This document shows positions 5,181 to 57,102 of a DNA stretch of 57,102 bases, in pieces (position 1 is the first letter of the stretch; each line of letters begins with the position of its first letter). The notes beneath the pieces were generated by a model, which saw nothing but the letters and a program-made list of their open reading frames with translations, did no database searches and was not told the origin of the DNA. The DNA lies in IMG/VR virus record IMGVR_UViG_3300017430_000001, positions 1 through 57,102 of that record. The stretch is one strand, 5' to 3'. This stretch comes from a virus. The position numbers and the translations under genes are program-made.

Positions 5181-5753
5181 TTAGTCATGCTCGAACTTCT
5201 TAGGCGGGTAGTCCCCTTGAAGACTGAGGCCGTCAAGTTCTTTCAAAGCTTGCAGACAAAGGGGCATTACGTTGTCCCGGGTGAGGACTTCTCGCAGCTT
5301 AACAATCTTGTCGGGGGTTCGTTCATAAGTTGATACACCCGATCCGTAGTAATAGCCATATGGGTATCGGGTTCCCGTGTAATGACTGGTGCCGTAAATC
5401 GTGTCCGTTTCACCCGTGTAGGCAGTGGGGATATCTACGACAAGAATACTTCGGTTCACATAACGGTCATAAGTCACTTCACCCATCTTTGTAACAGTCT
5501 TGTACTTTTCGCGGGGCCACCACCAATGCTTTACCCTTACGCGGGTTTCAACTTCTTCCGTTTTCACCTTAGTTTCTTTGTTGGATCGCTCACCGATTGA
5601 TTTCCCAATGTCGTAAAGCAGCCCGGTAGAACTATACTTCTTCCACTCGGTATCGGGTAGTTTCTTACGGATGGTCACATTGTACTTCCCGAGGCTCCAA
5701 AAGTAACCATCTGGTAGTTCAGGAAGACCCGTGGCGTTGTCAATTTCAGTCAT
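5181..5753 (-). CDS. Hypothetical protein (190 aa from MTEIDN)
   Basis: ORF track; the ATG at 5753 overlaps the upstream stop by 8 nt. Confidence 0.55.
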   Translation of the reverse strand: MTEIDNATGLPELPDGYFWSLGKYNVTIRKKLPDTEWKKYSSTGLLYDIGKSIGERSNKETKVKTEEVETRVRVKHWWWPREKYKTVTKMGEVTYDRYVNRSILVVDIPTAYTGETDTIYGTSHYTGTRYPYGYYYGSGVSTYERTPDKIVKLREVLTRDNVMPLCLQALKELDGLSLQGDYPPKKFEHD

Positions 5754-6105
5754 TGGGAATCTCCATATTCTTTCGGTGCCCGGCAAAAATTCCGTGGCTT
5801 GGTCGGGCTACGATACGGAAAATATCACACTCTCGGAAGGCGGGGCAACCCGCGCACGCTAGCTGGGCATCCCGTTCGGAGAGAAGATTGTCCCCGGAGA
5901 ACTCTTCTGCACGTCCCACACACGGAACGCCTTTACCTTCCCCGCGTTCTTTCTTCATTTCTTCGGCGGTTACTTTGTCGTTGAGGTTTTTCAGCGCTTT
6001 GGCCTCGGCATGACCCAGCAGCAAATTGTTAATCGAGTATTGCTTTTCAACTTTACGGTCTGCCAGAACCTTATAGCCCCGGATGCTAGAAATATTCTCA
6101 GCCAT
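5746..6105 (-). CDS. whiB: WhiB-like (Wbl) Fe-S transcription factor
   Basis: C-x21-C-x2-C-x5-C (PCVG..ACAGCPAFREC) followed by GIFAG (GxWGG-like turn). Confidence 0.8.
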   Translation of the reverse strand: MAENISSIRGYKVLADRKVEKQYSINNLLLGHAEAKALKNLNDKVTAEEMKKERGEGKGVPCVGRAEEFSGDNLLSERDAQLACAGCPAFRECDIFRIVARPSHGIFAGHRKNMEIPND

Positions 6106-6327
6106 TTACTTCTTTCTCACTGCGTATTTCCAAAGGCCGCGTTCTCGGTTCCCACGCTCCACGATCTTACGAGCCATGCTTGCAGCCGCTCGGTAGTGCC
6201 GGTTAGCCACGTCGTAATCCCCGAAAGTCACTTCCCAATTCGTCCGCTCCCGAATAGCACGATACTCCTGCGCTCTCACCACGTAATGCCTACGGGCCTT
6301 TCGATACAGGTTTTTACTGAAAATCAT
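6106..6327 (-). CDS. Hypothetical basic protein (start MIFSKNLYRK)
   Basis: ORF track; SD-like AAGGGGGAA 7 nt upstream of the ATG at 6327. Confidence 0.5.
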   Translation of the reverse strand: MIFSKNLYRKARRHYVVRAQEYRAIRERTNWEVTFGDYDVANRHYRAAASMARKIVERGNRERGLWKYAVRKK

Positions 6328-6474
6328 TGTTGCGTTCCCCCTTAGCAGTGCATCGAAACCAGACCCACATAATAGTGGGCGGACCCTCAGATGGAAAAGC
6401 CGGTATTTTAATAAGGTGCCTGTGCACACCGGAAAGGTCTTCGGTTTCTCGCTTAACTCGTCGTGTTGAGAAAA

Positions 6475-6681
6475 TCATCGCCCCTGTCCAATCGCAAAGT
6501 CGCGGGTCATATAGTAGTGACCAAGGTACTGCTCTACGGCGTCCATCGTCACAAAAGTCTGTGCAAAATGAGAATTAATGTAAAGATCATACTCCCGCCA
6601 TTCGGGGAATTCGCGAACTTCAACTTCCTCGTTTAGTTCCTTTGACCAATACCCTTCAACGGTTTCGTCGCTGTTTCTCAT
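6475..6681 (-). CDS. Hypothetical protein (68 aa, MRNSDETVEGYWSKELNEEVEVREFPEW..)
   Basis: ORF track with an internal ATG at 6681; its 5' third has a diverged duplicate at 7306-7410. Confidence 0.55.
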   Translation of the reverse strand: MRNSDETVEGYWSKELNEEVEVREFPEWREYDLYINSHFAQTFVTMDAVEQYLGHYYMTRDFAIGQGR

Positions 6682-7309
6682 TTCTCTTCCTTTCCCTGTA
6701 AGCAATGTCATAATTGTTTTTAGCAGTTCTGCATTTTTCGCAACGGCAAACATAACCTGTGTACCCGGTTACTGTACCGTGCACCTCACTGTCGGGAGGA
6801 AGTGGGTTACGACGAGCTTTTTCCCTCTTAGACTCCGACCAATCCCGAGAACACTTAATGCACTTTCGGATGCCGTTATAGTATCTTGTATTTTCAGCAG
6901 TAAACTCGTGTTGTTTAGCACAATGACTCTTAATGGATCTATTATCCGTTCCATCCCGAAAGCGGTCCCGCATATTCTTAAGTTGATCGCCCCAAGATAA
7001 GTTTTCAATTCTGTTGACAAACTTACCTTCAGGCCCGTGGATAACAAAAGGAAGATCTTCGGGGTTTTCAAGAAACGCTTTTGCTACCAAACGATGAACA
7101 GAAACAAGTTTTTCATGTCCTGTGTAATCCGATAAATGAACGGCCAGATACCCGCTTCGATCTATTCGAGGTTTTAAAATCTTTCCCTTAACGGGTAAAG
7201 GCCATCCGTTTGAACGTTTTGTTACCCTGGAAACGGACCTTACATTTCCTTCCGACGAAACTTCATATTTACCCTCATAGCCGATAACGGGCAACCAAAC
7301 TTCAGTCAC
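6656..7309 (-). CDS. HNH homing endonuclease with a NUMOD4-like N-terminus (free-standing mobile gene)
   Basis: WLPVIGYEGKYEVSSEGNVRS and HRLVAKAF..N..N motifs; visibly AT-richer than its neighbours. Confidence 0.8.
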   Translation of the reverse strand: MTEVWLPVIGYEGKYEVSSEGNVRSVSRVTKRSNGWPLPVKGKILKPRIDRSGYLAVHLSDYTGHEKLVSVHRLVAKAFLENPEDLPFVIHGPEGKFVNRIENLSWGDQLKNMRDRFRDGTDNRSIKSHCAKQHEFTAENTRYYNGIRKCIKCSRDWSESKREKARRNPLPPDSEVHGTVTGYTGYVCRCEKCRTAKNNYDIAYRERKRNEKQRRNR

Positions 7310-7410
7310 TTCAGGTCAATCTCATTCCACTCGGGAAACTCTCGAATCTCAACCTCTTCGTTAAGCTCATTCGACCAATAAGACTCCACCGTCTCATCAT
7401 CCTTACGCAT
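7306..7410 (-). pseudogene. Truncated 34-codon duplicate of the 5' end of gene 6475..6681
   Basis: My translation MRKDDETVESYWSNELNEEVEIREFPEWNEIDLK-stop is 26/33 identical to the N-terminus of the downstream gene. Its stop overlaps the HNH GTG start (GTGA). Confidence 0.7.
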
Positions 7411-7711
7411 CTTCGTCCCTCTCTCCGAGATACCAACGCAACGTCTCGATCCGCTTCCGAGCATACACCTCGAACTGCGCATCCGTTACGATGGTTTTCA
7501 GTTCGTCATCTTCTTCGATAACGCCGTACTCCGACCAGTCCTTGAATGCCTCGGACATGGCTTGGTCGTAGTCATCAAAACCCACGGCACCCTCACGAAT
7601 AGTGGCGGGAATGCCGTCTTCGAGAGTTGACATAAAGCCCATGATGACATACCACTTCAAGTCATCTGAGTTGAACTTCACCGTGTAGTAATTATCCGCG
7701 CTCATAACCAC
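7403..7711 (-). CDS. Hypothetical acidic protein
   Basis: ORF track. Confidence 0.55.
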   Translation of the reverse strand: MVMSADNYYTVKFNSDDLKWYVIMGFMSTLEDGIPATIREGAVGFDDYDQAMSEAFKDWSEYGVIEEDDELKTIVTDAQFEVYARKRIETLRWYLGERDEDA

Positions 7712-7941
7712 ATCGCTTTCAGAATAGCCTTGCCGAGAGATTCGCCATCTCGAATGTATACAATGCGGTTGGGTGGCCCATCTACGGTGCTACCGATAAG
7801 AATATGAAGGTCACCAACCCCGTTAGTCCACACATCAAGGTATGTGTCACCGTTTACATCATCGGTTTCAGTGAATACCGTGTCTTCGGTCTTCGCCGTA
7901 GGCGAGTGAGGTTCGTTAGAACCGATCATCTTCCACTCCAT
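7702..7941 (-). CDS. Hypothetical protein
   Basis: ORF track. Confidence 0.5.
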   Translation of the reverse strand: MEWKMIGSNEPHSPTAKTEDTVFTETDDVNGDTYLDVWTNGVGDLHILIGSTVDGPPNRIVYIRDGESLGKAILKAMWL

Positions 7942-8077
7942 TCGTCCAGTGTCGGTTACGTGGCACCCAGTCTACAGGTGTATCGGGTAGATCGTCAAAT
8001 CGAATCACGTACGGCCACCCCTTGTACACCGTCAGCGTCAGAAACGCCCCGGCTAAGACCCCCAGCACGAACTTCAC
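7916..8077 (-). CDS. Small membrane protein (53 aa, KFVLGVLAGAFLTLTVY..)
   Basis: My translation; GTGA overlap with the upstream stop; one hydrophobic helix. Confidence 0.4.
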   Translation of the reverse strand: MKFVLGVLAGAFLTLTVYKGWPYVIRFDDLPDTPVDWVPRNRHWTNGVEDDRF

Positions 8078-8259
8078 GACGGCCTCCATCCCCTGTCAAG
8101 TAGGTAATCAATAAGCGGGGTGATGTTCTTCACAGGCGCGAGTTTCTTACCGCCTTCGTGCGTGCATTCATCCACCCACACTTCTTCCATACGAATTTCG
8201 ATCTTGGTCATTCCCAGTGCCACATCCCGAATGAGTTGCGCCCTAACTGAAAGGCTCAT
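8074..8259 (-). CDS. Hypothetical protein
   Basis: ORF track. Confidence 0.5.
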   Translation of the reverse strand: MSLSVRAQLIRDVALGMTKIEIRMEEVWVDECTHEGGKKLAPVKNITPLIDYLLDRGWRPS

Positions 8260-8459
8260 TTCTTACTGTCCAAAATAGCCAAGGCTTCACGCAAGCCCTC
8301 TAGGCGGCCTCTAACCCGGTTGACTTTGCACCCACGATCAAAAGTTTCTTGCGGGTAGGCTGCGGTAATGCCCTCCATAACCCGCATCCTCTCGATAGCT
8401 ACAATCAGTTCATTACGCGCATCTTCAATAGACGCAAGCAACTTCTCACGGGTGTTCAT
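8256..8459 (-). CDS. Hypothetical protein
   Basis: ORF track; 4-nt overlap. Confidence 0.5.
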   Translation of the reverse strand: MNTREKLLASIEDARNELIVAIERMRVMEGITAAYPQETFDRGCKVNRVRGRLEGLREALAILDSKK

Positions 8460-42905: not shown

Positions 42906-44576
42906 ATGGGTTTTCGAGTTGATATCGGTGGCAAGGTCTATGAGGCGCAGGACTGGAACGTTCAAGAGGCGGCTACACCTCTCGCGGCGGGGGATTCTTC
43001 CGGTTCTACAGGGTCCATTGACCTGACCTTCCCCGTTATCGACTCCCAAATTCTTCCCGATCACCCCGTCAACATTTTCGGCCCTGAGTGGTTTATCGAC
43101 CAAGAAGTTCGCCTGGCGGATTCTCGTAAAGGCTTCACTCTCGGCAAAGTTGAGTCGGTGCGCCGCGGGGACCAGCAAGGGACTTACACGCTGTCCTGTG
43201 CCACCCGGCTGGGAGAACTAAACGTTTACGGTGTTCAAGCTCAACCTTTTGTGGGTACGCTCCGTAACGCCTTCATCTATTACCTGTCTTTGGCTAACAT
43301 TTCGACCGACCTCTTCATTGACGACGTTATTGGTGACCGGCCCGTTGTATTTCCGGGGTGGAACGGGGAACTATGGTTCCACCTGAAAGAGATGGCCGTT
43401 TCCCAGGACTGCGACATCTCCCTAGTATCGGGAATTATACTACTTCGACCCATCCGCGCCCGTGTAGCAACGCGAGGTCGCGATATTGACCGCAGCCGGG
43501 ATATCGGTGGTGGAACGCTTGCACGAGCGGTTGAGGTCTACCGGTACGCTGCGGAGCCCATCACCAACGAACTGGTTTACCCCCCCGGGGGGTGGGAACC
43601 CGAGACGCAGGTTCTCAATGTTAACGCAGGTGAAGAGTCCGAGTACGTTCTAGAACTTTCATCCTCCGTTGGCTCCATCCAACAACCCGTGATGGGCACA
43701 TTTGTGGCCGAGGACTACGATTTATCCTCCGTATATACGGTAGTCGCAAATGACGGCCTCCCGGTATCCCCCGCGGCATGGTTTAACAATGGGGGCTCAC
43801 TGACTGTCTCCATTGAGCCCGATACCGTCTCACTGCGAGTAAAACTCCGGGGTCCCACCAACCTTCCCACCGTTTCGGGTGGTCCCGCAACCAATTTTCA
43901 AGTTGCGCTTGCCTCCGACACCACGGGTAACAGGTACTCAACGCTTCGGATTGTCGGTACGGGTGTTCGCTTCGATAAACAGAAAATCACTGTTCGCACT
44001 ACCGTTCCACCCAGTAAAACGGCAACTGAGATTGGCGTAACGGTAGATAATATCTTCATTAACACAATTGACGATGCTTACCGGGCGGGTACTCGGGCCG
44101 CAAAACGCTTCAGTGGTTATTCCCCCACCCTTTCAGGTAGCGTTACGGCCATCAACCGCCGTGGGGATTCGGGGGTTGCGGACTACCCCACCTACGGAGA
44201 GGTAAGAACTATTCTCAACGAGGAACTAGCCGCCCCCTCTTATGGTGAAGTTCAGGACTACTACACGAATAGCCTGGGACTTTCCACCTATTACGATGTG
44301 GACCAGTATTGGTTTTCTTTTGTTCGGGACTCCGCTGTCAACCAGGTCTTTGGCAATGTTCAGGGGTGCCGTATCTACGACCGTAAATCACGTCGGTGGT
44401 ACCGTATTCGTACAGGCACGCTCACCCCTCCCAACATTCAGCAATTTGAAGCAGATGACGACTTAATCTTTGCGGATATTGAAGAGTTTTTCATCGACAA
44501 GACTTACGGTGACGTGCAATTACCCCGAACAGGTTTGACCTATAAACAGGAGCAAATGGCGGGTCTTTATGGCTGA
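42906..44576 (+). CDS. Minor tail protein (Tal/baseplate hub-like)
   Basis: Second gene after the tape measure gene; 556 aa. Confidence 0.5.
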   Translation: MGFRVDIGGKVYEAQDWNVQEAATPLAAGDSSGSTGSIDLTFPVIDSQILPDHPVNIFGPEWFIDQEVRLADSRKGFTLGKVESVRRGDQQGTYTLSCATRLGELNVYGVQAQPFVGTLRNAFIYYLSLANISTDLFIDDVIGDRPVVFPGWNGELWFHLKEMAVSQDCDISLVSGIILLRPIRARVATRGRDIDRSRDIGGGTLARAVEVYRYAAEPITNELVYPPGGWEPETQVLNVNAGEESEYVLELSSSVGSIQQPVMGTFVAEDYDLSSVYTVVANDGLPVSPAAWFNNGGSLTVSIEPDTVSLRVKLRGPTNLPTVSGGPATNFQVALASDTTGNRYSTLRIVGTGVRFDKQKITVRTTVPPSKTATEIGVTVDNIFINTIDDAYRAGTRAAKRFSGYSPTLSGSVTAINRRGDSGVADYPTYGEVRTILNEELAAPSYGEVQDYYTNSLGLSTYYDVDQYWFSFVRDSAVNQVFGNVQGCRIYDRKSRRWYRIRTGTLTPPNIQQFEADDDLIFADIEEFFIDKTYGDVQLPRTGLTYKQEQMAGLYG

Positions 44577-45606
44577 CGTATTCCCGCGCCGGAACTTAGG
44601 CTCAGGTGAATATTGGGGCCGGACGGTAGAAACGCGTATTCAGTCGGTAGAGAAGAAAAAGGGTTACGCAGACCTTACCCAAGCGGGCACGAACCGGGGT
44701 GTTGTTGCTTCCTCATCCGATCTTGCCCGTAACCTGGAATCTCTTCGGCAACAAGCTCTTCAAACGCAAGCACTTATCAATGCCACCCCCGCTACGGGCA
44801 CGAACGGCTCCTATGCATCTAACTTTTCCCTCTCTCCCGGGTGGCAGACCGTCCTTGTCACAGCAATCCCCGAGGTTAACGGACGACCCGTTCTCGATAT
44901 TTTCGCTACCGCGGTCGTTAGAATTGTCGATCCCGGAACGGGGGGTGGTTCTGGGGGCGGAGGGTTTCGGTGGCCCTTTCCCACCTCTACTGTAACGAGC
45001 GAATACGGCCCCCGCGATGGCCGAATGCACCAGGGTATTGACTTCGGAGTCCCCGAGGGTACCCCCATTCCCGCGTCCAACGCAGGTACTGTTACCGGTA
45101 ACGGATTCGGCAGCGGCACCGGATGGTATGTCGATATCACCCACCCCGGTAACATTAAAACACGCTATTTCCACATGGTTGCGCAATCAGATGTAGCAAT
45201 TGGGACCGTTGTATCCAAAAGCCAGGTAATTGGGTTTGTAGGCAACACCGGTAACTCTTTCGGCGCTCACCTTCACTGGGAGACTATTGTGAACGGGAGT
45301 CACTGGAATCCCCGAGACTTTATGTCCGTTTATGGTGATGGTGGGTCGGGTGGCGGTTCGTCGGGTCCATCTTACGCACGACCTAAGGCAAGAATCTTTC
45401 TTAACGGTATGCCTTCTTTTGATTTCTTTCCGCATCGTGACTTGGCCGCAAACTCCGTGACGCTGAATCAGCTTTTTCCGATTCACGCGCTTAGAATTAC
45501 GGGAGGCCAAATGGACGCAGAACTGCAAGTTTTCTCCGAGACGAATGTGCCCGCGAACGCTGGTAACTTTGCCCGCCTTACGATGGAGGGTGTTTTTAAC
45601 CCGTGA
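44569..45606 (+). CDS. Minor tail protein with an M23 (LytM) peptidase domain
   Basis: HQGIDFGVPEGTPI (HxxxD) and GAHLHWET (HxH); preceded by a Gly-rich linker. Confidence 0.75.
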   Translation: MADVFPRRNLGSGEYWGRTVETRIQSVEKKKGYADLTQAGTNRGVVASSSDLARNLESLRQQALQTQALINATPATGTNGSYASNFSLSPGWQTVLVTAIPEVNGRPVLDIFATAVVRIVDPGTGGGSGGGGFRWPFPTSTVTSEYGPRDGRMHQGIDFGVPEGTPIPASNAGTVTGNGFGSGTGWYVDITHPGNIKTRYFHMVAQSDVAIGTVVSKSQVIGFVGNTGNSFGAHLHWETIVNGSHWNPRDFMSVYGDGGSGGGSSGPSYARPKARIFLNGMPSFDFFPHRDLAANSVTLNQLFPIHALRITGGQMDAELQVFSETNVPANAGNFARLTMEGVFNP

Positions 45607-46238
45607 ACCCCAAAGACGTTTTTCCCCGTCGTAATCTTGGCCCGTCTGATGAATGGGCTAGAGCCGTTGAAGACAGAATTCGAGACCTTGAATACGCTGT
45701 TCTAGGCCAAAGCACGAACCTTAAAAGCGATAATCGAGCCAACTCATCTAACTTTCAGGAACTCGCACGTCAGCTTGTGCAATTGCGCGCCCTTCAGGCT
45801 CAAAACGAGGCTGCAATTCGGGCTATTCCCAAGACGTTGCAGTCCCTTGATTCCGCCGCCAATTTCTCTTTGGGTGCGGGCTGGAACACGGTGGTATCTA
45901 CCTCGATTACGGTCCCTCAGGGTGTGAATTACGTTCGTCTTGCCGCTTACGGTTCGGGTCAAGTCGTAAGCACTACCACCACTCAAAACGTGGAGACACA
46001 GTACCGAGTAGTCGTCCCGGGTATCGGTGAGCAGCCTCCCGCCCCTGGACCTTGGGCTGTCGGCTACGGAGATTTCCGTACAATCCTTCTCCCGTCTTAC
46101 GCCTGGGAAGCGTCTGTAAGTCCGGGACAAATCCTTACAGCACAGTTTCAAGTGCTACCCACAGACCCCGGGGCGTATTCCGCGCCTAACGGGGATTCCT
46201 ACGCCATCATTACCCTCCGTGCAACTTTCACAGGGTGA
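45603..46238 (+). CDS. Minor tail protein sharing its N-terminal domain with the M23 protein
   Basis: KDVFPRRNLGPSDEWARAVEDRI.. parallels ADVFPRRNLGSGEYWGRTVETRI.. Confidence 0.55.
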   Translation: MNPKDVFPRRNLGPSDEWARAVEDRIRDLEYAVLGQSTNLKSDNRANSSNFQELARQLVQLRALQAQNEAAIRAIPKTLQSLDSAANFSLGAGWNTVVSTSITVPQGVNYVRLAAYGSGQVVSTTTTQNVETQYRVVVPGIGEQPPAPGPWAVGYGDFRTILLPSYAWEASVSPGQILTAQFQVLPTDPGAYSAPNGDSYAIITLRATFTG

Positions 46239-55876: not shown

Positions 55877-57102
55877 ACATAATCTCCTTGTTGTTGCCCG
55901 ATACCGGGACGTGATTCACCCTACCACTCTCCACCAAGAAACTCAACCTGTCGTTCAACTCGTTTTGGGAGCGAACGATGAGACCCTTGAACTGATGGAG
56001 CAGTGCCGCCCGGGAGACTGAGCCGCCTTCGTGCTTGATGTAATCTTCGATGAGGGCAAGATCACGTGAATACGGACTCTCCGCAATCTCGTTGGCTACC
56101 ATCAGTAGGGTCTTAAACCATGTCTCAGCGTGGTAAATCGCCGTCAGCACGTCCACGGTGTCAAAGACCGTTTCACCTCGGTACAGGGCCAGCAGCGCCG
56201 CGCACTTAAGGATGGTTTCTTTCAGTCGGGTGACACTCGGCTCAATCGAGTCGTAGCGGGGGTGCTTCTCGCCCTTCTTGTAGAACGCCCGGATTGCCTT
56301 TTCAACCCGCTTAGTGGCCTTGTCATCGCCAGTCACCGGAACCGTGGAGTCGAACTGGGCTGCGACACTTGCAAGGTCGTTTGCCAACTCGAAGGCTGCG
56401 GGACTGATGCGCTTTTCAGTCGTTGTGGAGTAGGTGATGCGGTTCTTGGCGTCCGGGTCGATGGGGGGTGCCCCGATAACCCAGTTCGTTCGTGCTAGGA
56501 AGCCGGATGCGAACATGGATGCATCAATGAGGGGGAGGAAGCGGTCAGGCGTTGCCATCATAAAAGACGACAGGGAAGTACGCGCGTTCTTACCCCGGAG
56601 TTCTTTCATGTTCAGCTTGGTAGAACCCTTAACCCAGCCGTTGTACCAGCGGGCGAACCGGTCAGGAAGAGTTGCCATCCAATCTTTAGATCGGAGATTC
56701 ATAAAGAACGACGACGCCTCATCTTCGTAAATAAGGGTTGGCTTTCCATCCCGGGTAAGAAGGTCCATCTCCATGCCCTCGGGGGAGGAATTAGCGCTCA
56801 TGGAAAACGAACTGTCATCTTCGTGTAGCAGAACGCGGAACACTTCTTGCAGGAATTCACCTTCAGAAGTCTTACCCGTACCACTCATCGCAGCAATTGT
56901 GAACCACAGATTCATTTCCAGCGGGGTTGCACCGATAGGAACGTACGCCCGGGTTCCGAAAGCCATTGACAAACACGTCCATGCCGCAGGAACTGCCACG
57001 TCGAGATTCACGAATCCCTTGGAAGCCGAAGCCGCAACGTAGGAGTCGATGAAGGTGTCGTTTTCGAGAACAGTCTCTAGTTCTTTGTCGGTAAGAAATT
57101 CG
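55860..57102 (-). CDS. PrimPol/helicase fusion, C-terminal P-loop NTPase part (continues from 1307..1 through the circular junction)
   Basis: Walker A AAMSGTGKTS. The ORF stays open to the right window edge, in frame with the PrimPol domain at 1..1307. Combined length about 808 aa. Confidence 0.8.
   Translation of the reverse strand, partial: EFLTDKELETVLENDTFIDSYVAASASKGFVNLDVAVPAAWTCLSMAFGTRAYVPIGATPLEMNLWFTIAAMSGTGKTSEGEFLQEVFRVLLHEDDSSFSMSANSSPEGMEMDLLTRDGKPTLIYEDEASSFFMNLRSKDWMATLPDRFARWYNGWVKGSTKLNMKELRGKNARTSLSSFMMATPDRFLPLIDASMFASGFLARTNWVIGAPPIDPDAKNRITYSTTTEKRISPAAFELANDLASVAAQFDSTVPVTGDDKATKRVEKAIRAFYKKGEKHPRYDSIEPSVTRLKETILKCAALLALYRGETVFDTVDVLTAIYHAETWFKTLLMVANEIAESPYSRDLALIEDYIKHEGGSVSRAALLHQFKGLIVRSQNELNDRLSFLVESGRVNHVPVSGNNKEIMYVING
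56980..57102. repeat. Right copy of the 123-bp terminal overlap
   Basis: Identical to 1..123. Confidence 0.95.

Follow-up and report, generated by a model that had tools for sequence, protein, structure and literature searches.

The DNA analysed here, referred to below as the window, is the whole of IMG/VR virus record IMGVR_UViG_3300017430_000001 (57,102 nucleotides, nt), and it represents the complete genome of an uncultured soil phage, probably one with an actinobacterial host. At one place in it, the gene of an HNH endonuclease lies between two versions of the beginning of a small gene, called X in this work: an open reading frame (ORF) of 34 codons upstream, referred to as the stub, and a complete copy of X downstream. 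All positions are window coordinates, and the locus is read on the minus strand, in the order stub (7410–7306), HNH gene (7309–6656) and gene X (6681–6475). A preliminary description had already set out this arrangement at 6475–7410, and its coordinates and translations were all found to be correct. In the following list of features, 'resident' and 'donor' anticipate the interpretation developed below, and L014 is a contig that carries a related HNH gene at the same site.

7403–7711, minus strand: upstream gene of about 100 amino acids (aa), function unassigned, resident; its last 8 nt overlap the ATG of the stub (ATGCGTAA)
7306–7410, minus strand: stub ORF; resident X nt 1–99 (7410–7312), followed by AAG TGA supplied by the junction
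7311–7312, minus strand: left junction, illegitimate; resident X nt 99 meets foreign DNA 2 nt before the GTG of the HNH gene
6565–7311, minus strand: foreign cassette of about 747 nt; HNH gene and X nt 1 to about 117
6656–7309, minus strand: HNH gene, free-standing, 217 aa, GTG start; NUMOD4 N terminus, I-HmuI-like core and Cys/His-rich C-terminal region
6656–6681, minus strand: overlap of 26 nt between the HNH 3′ end and the start of X, read from the sequence; the same in L014
6475–6681, minus strand: gene X, 68 aa, chimeric; nt 1 to about 117 (6681–6565) donor-type, nt about 118 to 207 (6564–6475) resident-type
6572–6597, minus strand: X nt 85–110 in the HNH-linked state, presumed cleavage-resistant; the equivalent in HNH-less alleles is the predicted target region

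The stub and the left junction

The stub runs from an ATG at 7410 to a TGA at 7306 and translates as MRKDDETVESYWSNELNEEVEIREFPEWNEIDLK, followed by the stop. When it was aligned with codons 1–33 of the complete X, 26 of the 33 aa and 66 of the 99 nt (66.7%) were identical, and 23 of the 33 nt differences fell on codon position 3. The preliminary description had given the same aa count and had put the DNA identity a little higher, at about 70%. In an all-against-all blastp comparison of the ORF fragments of the window, the stub and X paired with E = 1e-16, and this was the sole internal partial duplication besides one tandem pair of paralogues in the tail region. The likeness is not due to chance. 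Nowhere do the stub and the 5′ copy in X match exactly over more than 8 nt; precise loss through homologous recombination is therefore unlikely. The stop of the stub overlaps the GTG start of the HNH gene as GTGA, as had been noticed earlier and is confirmed by the sequence.

The stub was close to alleles of X in other phages. Against the 5′ end of X in L004, a locus that lacks the HNH gene, it showed 92.9% nt identity and 31 of 33 identical aa, and against that of L011 it showed 92% nt identity, compared with 66.7% for the X of its own genome. The earlier suggestion that the resident 5′ end was left behind as a stub is borne out by this comparison, and the stub is the resident allele of the 5′ end of X. 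Its reading frame is intact, and its differences from L004 are mostly at codon position 3 (1, 1 and 5 for the three positions). The number of synonymous substitutions per site (dS) between the stub and L004 is about 0.29; the two copies in the window are saturated at synonymous sites (proportion of synonymous differences, pS, above 0.75).

Alignments (blastn) of the HNH-less loci to the stub all ended at 7312 or 7313. At this point the stub has GAGATTGACCTG followed by AAGTGA, as against GAGATTGACCTG followed by TACCTT in L016. The left junction is non-homologous and lies 2 nt ahead of the HNH start. A patch of 11 matching positions out of 13 (GGAA.GAG.TTGA) occurs both at resident X nt 83–95 and 11–23 nt upstream of the HNH ATG of L014, and in both it is followed by GAAG(A)TGAC (L014 78–101, window 7328–7306). 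This patch may be the microhomology of the left join, it may be what is left of an earlier stub in L014, or it may be due to chance; it is marginally above chance by a rough estimate and is not relied on here.

On the structural model of X described below, the stub would cover helix 1, strand 1 and part of strand 2, which is less than the whole domain. As it holds these elements only, the stub peptide is probably non-functional.

Relatives lacking the HNH gene

We searched with X through IMG/VR, the JGI metagenomes and a collection of 5.8 billion proteins, and then looked up the context of the matches. The HNH gene was present at this site in the window and in L014. It was absent from about 13 distinct loci (L003, L004, L006, L007, L011, L012, L013, L015, L016, L017, L018, L019, L020) and from a further 24 contigs, which carry allele P0130. 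With the stub peptide as a tblastn query, each locus gave one stub-like sequence, always contiguous with the rest of X, and the window alone gave two. No separate 34-codon ORF was found in the HNH-less relatives (the 13 or so loci and the 24 P0130 contigs). The preliminary description had named an independent, conserved gene of this kind in relatives without the HNH gene as the finding that would speak against its reading; what these relatives hold is a single contiguous X everywhere.

The empty site, for which it had proposed to look, was found in L015 and L016. Both contain a homologue of the upstream gene of about 100 aa (L015, 2706–3008; L016, 968–1270), which overlaps an intact X by the same 8 nt. 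The blastn colinearity of these two loci with the window runs from 8065 to 7312 and ends exactly at 7312.

Further searches were made in other directions. A scan of IMG/VR with the 102-aa upstream gene gave no match, a second one with a profile of X returned only two contigs that were already known, and a degenerate DNA pattern of the HNH-linked motif EYDLY[IL]NSHFAQ had no match in IMG/VR. None was found when the GTDB genomes were scanned with the X profile, and hence no clue to a prophage or a host was obtained. Megablast of 5700–8300 against 50,697 GenBank phages gave no match.

Gene X and the right junction

Over nt 1–99, the complete X of the window was 60–68% identical in nt to every HNH-less allele. 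The 5′ part matched L014 at 74% (nt 1–99) and 83% (nt 100–117), compared with 56–72% for the HNH-less alleles. For the 3′ part (nt 118–198), identity was 90–95% to the HNH-less loci L003, L006, L007 and L011, and 72% to L014. A maximum-difference test placed the breakpoint at nt 112–129 (Fisher p = 9e-6 to 2e-4, by comparator). As its 5′ and 3′ parts have discordant relatives, the complete X is a chimera, consisting of donor codons 1 to about 39 and resident codons about 40–68. By the same comparisons, the tract of about 747 nt from 7311 to about 6565 is foreign, and its right junction is a homologous crossover inside X. The preliminary description had the endonuclease arrive together with a donor allele of its neighbour. 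This stood for the 5′ part of X, which is foreign and groups with the HNH-linked X of L014, but not for the allele as a whole: the imported piece comprises only the first 117 nt or so, and the 3′ half of X is resident.

The base composition was also examined. The GC content of the HNH gene is 0.434, against a genome mean of 0.543 (standard deviation 0.031, 654-nt windows), in agreement with the earlier remark that the gene is AT-richer than its flanks. The ten lowest-GC windows of 654 nt in the whole 57 kb all start within 6531–6671, and no other segment of the genome has a GC content as low as that of the cassette (0.43).

The AlphaFold model of X (predicted local distance difference test score, pLDDT, 88.8) has the order alpha-beta-beta-beta-alpha, with the seam of the chimera at the turn between beta2 and beta3. 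The same order of elements (helix-strand-strand-strand-helix) is found in the double-stranded RNA-binding domain (dsRBD). No significant neighbour of the model was found in the PDB (best E about 0.5), the matches of dsRBD-like topology being weak (E about 0.6–0.9), and no Pfam or PHROG family was matched by X.

We then looked for positions at which the HNH-less alleles (n = 13) and the stub have no base in common with either HNH-linked allele, leaving out the zone of overlap with the HNH gene (X nt 4–18). These are nt 29, 42, 85–87 and 109–110. Nt 85–87 make up codon 29 of X and nt 109–110 belong to codon 37, and the break of the stub (nt 99/100) falls between these two clusters. The changes at nt 85–87 and 109–110 may confer immunity on the HNH-linked alleles.

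The gene that follows X differs among the relatives. In the window it is a 54-aa ORF (6314–6478, minus strand). Unrelated ORFs of 63–85 aa occupy this position in L015 (3204–3395), L016 (1469–1660) and L013 (3001–3198), and L014 and L019 have none. Mosaicism has a second boundary here, right where X ends.

The HNH gene and its product

Residues 3–60 of the HNH protein matched the Pfam family NUMOD4 (PF07463) with E = 1.5e-14 and 54.4 bits, against a cutoff of 23.4, and the protein matched PHROG 1492 (HNH endonuclease) at 8.5e-52. In a phmmer search it matched I-HmuI (PDB 1U3E) at 8.9e-8. Its AlphaFold model (pLDDT 87.8) had a sole significant Foldseek match in the PDB, which was again I-HmuI (1U3E_M; E = 1e-6, prob 1.00, 121 columns, 35% identity). 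H91, N103 and N112 are invariant across 36 HNH homologues and align to the I-HmuI motif. By family, the product appears to be an I-HmuI-like NUMOD4/HNH endonuclease, for which nuclease activity is plausible as a prediction.

The HNH gene is an ORF of its own between genes, with a separate start and stop, in a frame that differs from those of the stub and of X. No Shine-Dalgarno (SD) sequence precedes its GTG in the window, and L014 has GGAAAGAGG upstream of the HNH ATG. Given the GTGA overlap and the lack of an SD sequence of its own, translation of the window HNH gene is probably coupled to the stub. The SD sequence of X, GGAAAGGAAGAG, sits inside the HNH codons YRERKR, in the window cassette as well as in that of L014.

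Protein P0002, encoded on L014, was the only close homologue of the HNH protein among the 5.8 billion proteins (71% aa identity), and a scan of IMG/VR with the HNH protein returned only a 39% relative, L005. Between the window and L014, the proportion of nonsynonymous differences (pN) was 0.19, as against a pS of 0.83. The HNH protein has therefore been kept by purifying selection over a long period, and the two cassettes are old, independent variants.

It may be added that HNH-less relatives bear other free-standing HNH genes elsewhere in the same early-gene block (L003, 6824–7429; L004, 5666–6199 and 6549–7049; L015, 4699–5220). Besides genes of NUMOD4 type, at 31–41% identity, these include one that belongs to another HNH type. 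The WhiB-like gene and a 73-aa gene flank one of them, and another lies shortly before ERF. The early-gene block appears to be a hotspot for endonuclease insertion.

Two further recombinants of X

In L014 the HNH gene lies directly upstream of X, with the same overlap of 26 nt, and there is no stub. The contig aligned to window 7328 to 6512 by blastn, and the nearest cassette was 67% identical in nt. Its X also changes relatives along its length: nt 118–198 are 98% identical to HNH-less L013 and 72% to the window, and the breakpoint lies at nt 110–120 (Fisher p = 3e-9, 58 candidate breakpoints). The left boundary of L014 lies about 45 nt before the HNH ATG, inside a 55-aa gene, up to which L014 matches L013 and after which it diverges. 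A 60-aa gene of L013 is missing. These features point to a clean two-sided replacement in L014. Having entered two backbones with the same right boundary, the HNH gene together with the first 39 or so codons of X behaves as one transferable unit.

The second recombinant, L019 (Logan SRR28413686_32368, X at 210–416), is HNH-less. Its X resembles that of L013 as far as nt 69 and that of L014 from nt 77 onward, which places the crossover at nt 69–77; over nt 77–111, all 15 of the 15 informative sites are L014-like (p = 1e-8). L019 has the HNH-linked state at nt 85–87 and 109–110, and its nt 29 and 42 are as in the HNH-less alleles. Its X is a candidate for a cleavage-resistant, endonuclease-free allele.

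Proposed course of events

The reading that we consider probable, with some room left for others, is one-sided homing by a cassette consisting of the HNH gene and the start of X, homologous on the right and illegitimate on the left, by which resident codons 1–33 were left as a stub. Since the HNH ORF overlaps the start of X by 26 nt, the HNH gene cannot move without that start. In an ancestor of the phage, the cassette would have been copied in from a diverged, co-infecting relative. The HNH protein would cut or nick HNH-less alleles of X somewhere at about nt 85–130, and this would start the event. The X-3′ side of the break would then invade the donor, and the 5′ part of X and the HNH gene would be copied. 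On the right side, repair would be homologous, with the crossover at X nt 112–129 or thereabouts. The left side would have had no adjacent homology, because the resident has two extra genes (7941–7702 and 7711–7403) between the donor-type upstream gene and X, and the end would have been sealed illegitimately, with nt 99 of the resident X joined to a point 2 nt ahead of the HNH start. Resident codons 1–33 would be left as the 34-codon stub, closed by a TGA derived from the junction, and translation of the HNH gene in the window phage would now depend on coupling to the stub.

Several points weigh against this course of events. The donor itself is not represented among the sampled sequences, and synonymous sites between the two cassettes are saturated, which hides any microhomology at the left junction. 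The shared right boundary could reflect the first stretch of X that is conserved well enough for a crossover, and not proximity to the cut. If templates were switched, in the manner of break-induced replication, nt 99 would show where the switch landed, not where the break was. HNH-bearing lineages number only two, and the stub occurs in just one of them. As for the enzyme, the catalytic His is preceded by Ile in the window HNH protein and by Asp in I-HmuI (Leu stands at this place in L014 and in gp88 of phage Cassita, and Cys or Asn in others), and the Pfam family HNH_3 was not matched at E ≤ 0.1 by the window protein.

Beyond the one-sided homing proposed above, we suggest tentatively, as a possibility that is less probable than its opposite, that the HNH lineage uses a portable gene start: the 3′ end of the HNH gene would be interlocked with about 39 recoded, cleavage-immune codons of X and with the SD sequence of X. 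If this were true, the cassette could invade any genome with a conserved 3′ half of X, as homology would be needed on one side only. Landing inside X would rebuild a working gene, and the displaced start could be co-opted as a leader ORF for translation of the HNH gene. Such an element would correspond, in phages and with the 5′ end in place of the 3′ end, to the mitochondrial elements with mobile ORFs (mORFs) and portable C termini, and it would offer homing endonucleases a general route between phages of differing gene order.

Alternative explanations

The missing Asp and the lack of an HNH_3 match would also suit an account in which recombination was generic, illegitimate or mosaic, and the HNH gene was passive cargo, not the breaker, its product being perhaps inactive or a DNA binder only. 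Actinophage genomes are highly mosaic, the genes around X vary among relatives, and the positions of the crossovers can be explained by where homology exists. Against this, four independent boundaries lie within about 60 nt of X (nt 99 and nt 112–129 in the window, nt 110–120 in L014, nt 69–77 in L019). Both cassettes, although synonymously saturated, keep a full-length HNH gene under purifying selection that overlaps X; H, N and N are invariant, the fold matches I-HmuI, and the sporadic presence of the gene among close relatives is typical of homing. We regard passive cargo as unlikely, though it is the most serious of the competing accounts.

The stub may instead have been kept for a function of its own, either as a translated leader ORF, with termination and reinitiation at GTGA onto the SD-less GTG, or as an active 34-aa peptide. 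The stub is intact, the resident SD sequence and the 8-nt upstream overlap are kept, and its stop overlaps the HNH start, which, unlike that in L014 (GGAAAGAGG), lacks an SD sequence; moreover, the region showed no excess of promoter-like or terminator-like sequences. There is a single stub lineage, however, so that selection cannot be judged from it, and the divergence of the stub (7/99) is similar to that of the resident 3′ part of X (4/81), so the event may simply be recent. An active peptide would have to do without half of the predicted beta-sheet and without helix 2. We consider such a function rather improbable as the explanation of the locus; it is compatible with one-sided homing as a secondary consequence.

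An assembly chimera of HNH-plus and HNH-minus strains could have created a false duplication, since the genome was assembled from an uncultured source and soil metagenomes contain the two allele types of X side by side. However, a Logan contig of run SRR6987409 has the identical arrangement, with 100% identity along 3207 nt, and the exact X of the window is carried by two contigs according to a contig index look-up. The sequences that meet at the left junction have no long k-mer in common; with 8 nt as the longest exact match between the stub and X, a de Bruijn graph offers no path by which the arrangement could be created. The ends of the window, moreover, form an exact direct repeat of 123 nt (1–123 = 56980–57102); the contig is therefore circularly closed or terminally redundant, and the complete genome comprises about 56,979 bp. 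An artefact of assembly is very improbable on these grounds.

The two remaining accounts fare worse. The copies flank the HNH gene in direct orientation, as they would if the 5′ end of X had been duplicated in tandem in situ and had diverged before the HNH gene was inserted, but the stub is 93% identical to alleles of other phages and the other copy, at 67%, groups with L014, pS between the copies exceeds 0.75 as against a dS of about 0.29 between the stub and L004, and L014 has the cassette without a duplication; we consider this barely conceivable, the allele relationships ruling it out. A group I intron or an intein, with the stub as exon 1 and X from codon 34 as exon 2, would restore a resident-type X from stub codons 1–33 and X codon 34 onward, but it is excluded as the least credible of all, as there was no Rfam match at E ≤ 1 on either strand of 6000–8000, the insert of about 750 nt is filled by the HNH ORF and an SD-equipped start of X with no non-coding room for a ribozyme, the stub ends in a stop with the HNH gene in another frame, and L014 relies on the cassette copy of X alone.

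We also considered whether the HNH-less alleles arose when an ancestor with a stub lost the DNA between the repeats. This was ruled out, since their state at nt 100–117 (x-G-H/D; codon 37 = Gly) is absent from the window.

Significance of the locus

Homing endonuclease genes (HEGs) count among the main presumed drivers of mosaicism in phages. Single natural events seldom remain visible, since gene conversion on two sides is scarless. The scar in the window separates resident from imported DNA, and both boundaries can be placed within a few nucleotides. The likely target is thereby narrowed to about 45 bp of a small conserved gene (X nt 85–130), and the predicted specificity is directly testable. 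The evidence supports the locus as a natural, well-resolved footprint of one-sided homing, a kind of event that is not unprecedented. A free-standing phage HNH gene would thus be able to spread into a genome without upstream homology by bringing a replacement gene start with it, for which a parallel has so far been described mainly for endonuclease ORFs of fungal mitochondria. For annotation, short ORFs beside HNH genes may be displaced gene ends, and a gene neighbouring an HNH gene may be a chimera that misleads phylogenies.

Genome context

The nearest cultured relatives are phages of Microbacterium paraoxydans (Lifes, Cassita and others), to which the terminase of the window is about 55% identical in aa. 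X is a small early gene, kept directly ahead of a WhiB-like gene throughout a group of uncultured, actinophage-like soil genomes. Lifes and Cassita have a weak homologue of X (35–37%) just upstream of a WhiB-family gene, and an HNH protein of 47% identity encoded at another position; these phages were rejected as empty sites, being too distant. In the window, the gene at 5746–6105 (minus strand) encodes a 119-aa protein with a sub-threshold Pfam WhiB match (21.8 bits, cutoff 23.6), and Cassita and Lifes have, at the equivalent position, a gene with the annotation WhiB-family transcription factor.

The tandem paralogues of the tail region are the adjacent ORFs 44539–45603 and 45600–46235 (plus strand), which are 44% identical in aa over 102 residues (E = 3e-17, self-blastp). 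The pair looks like a tandem duplication of a tail-fibre-like module.

Comparison with known systems

Like the HEGs of vibriophage ICP1 (PMC10448857), the HNH gene of the window lies at recombination breakpoints, and adjacent sequence was exchanged with it. A text search of PMC10448857 turned up no account of a gene end displaced as a stub, nor of an overlapping gene start that is portable; the duplications reported there are within the DNA-binding domains of HEGs. With I-HmuI (PDB 1U3E), the HNH nicking enzyme of Bacillus phage SPO1, the window HNH protein shares the N-terminal 120 residues or so, that is, a NUMOD4-type beta-sheet region and the beta-beta-alpha-metal core, and also the general-base His and two Asn. 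I-HmuI differs in being intron-encoded and in having a C-terminal helix-turn-helix; the window HNH gene is free-standing, and its product has a Cys/His-rich C-terminal half and Ile in place of Asp.

A further parallel is the intronless homing and marker exclusion brought about by the free-standing endonucleases SegF, SegG, SegB and MobE of phage T4 (PMC2988022, PMC2790892). There too the gene is intergenic and sporadic among related phages, and the flank in the neighbouring gene is co-converted, which gives mosaic alleles. HEG-plus and HEG-minus alleles differ near the presumed cut; in X, the fixed differences at nt 85–87 and 109–110 flank the break of the stub and may lie near the target. Co-conversion of this kind was found here as well, X nt 1 to about 117 travelling with the HNH gene in two backbones (breakpoints p = 3e-9 and about 1e-5). 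In T4, however, conversion is two-sided, no duplicated stub is left and the cut sites were mapped experimentally; here the left join is illegitimate and was read from sequence only. One-sided homing with illegitimate, microhomology-mediated repair of the double-strand break was shown experimentally for a T4 intron (Parker et al. 1999, according to PMC2988022). As PMC2988022 gives it, homology was present on one side and the other was joined at a microhomology after nucleolytic degradation, which is the mechanism that we propose for 7312/7311. The T4 work was done in the laboratory on engineered substrates, and its GIY-YIG enzyme was encoded in an intron, whereas the present case is natural and involves a free-standing HNH gene in an unrelated phage group. 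In the literature that we searched, no description of a displaced 5′ stub beside a free-standing phage HNH gene was found, an absence which is not proof of novelty.

In the architecture of its stub, the locus is most like the mORFs of fungal mitochondria. Paquin, Laforest and Lang reportedly described in 1994 a mobile ORF that carries a foreign gene end in atp6 of Allomyces macrogynus. In Glomus mitochondria, mORFs bring a foreign C terminus of atp6, atp9, cox2 or nad3, and the native C terminus stays downstream; the duplicated ends are 63.5% identical, and the native atp6 end is 91% identical to that of a close relative (PMC3630166). As in these fungi, an endonuclease ORF of the window travels with a diverged end of the gene next to it, which turns the host gene into a hybrid, and the native end remains beside the element as a stub. 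The figures are also alike, the native stub being near its relatives (91% for Glomus atp6, 93% here) and the duplicated ends about 64–67% identical in nt, with the protein largely kept. The window case differs in that the 5′ or N-terminal end is swapped, as against the 3′ or C-terminal end in fungi, that the setting is a double-stranded DNA phage and not mitochondrial DNA, and that the enzyme is of the HNH and not the LAGLIDADG or GIY-YIG type. The HNH gene also overlaps X out of frame by 26 nt, with no in-frame fusion, and a stub-free version exists in L014. Hence, the window cassette works like the fungal mORF class without being a member of it.

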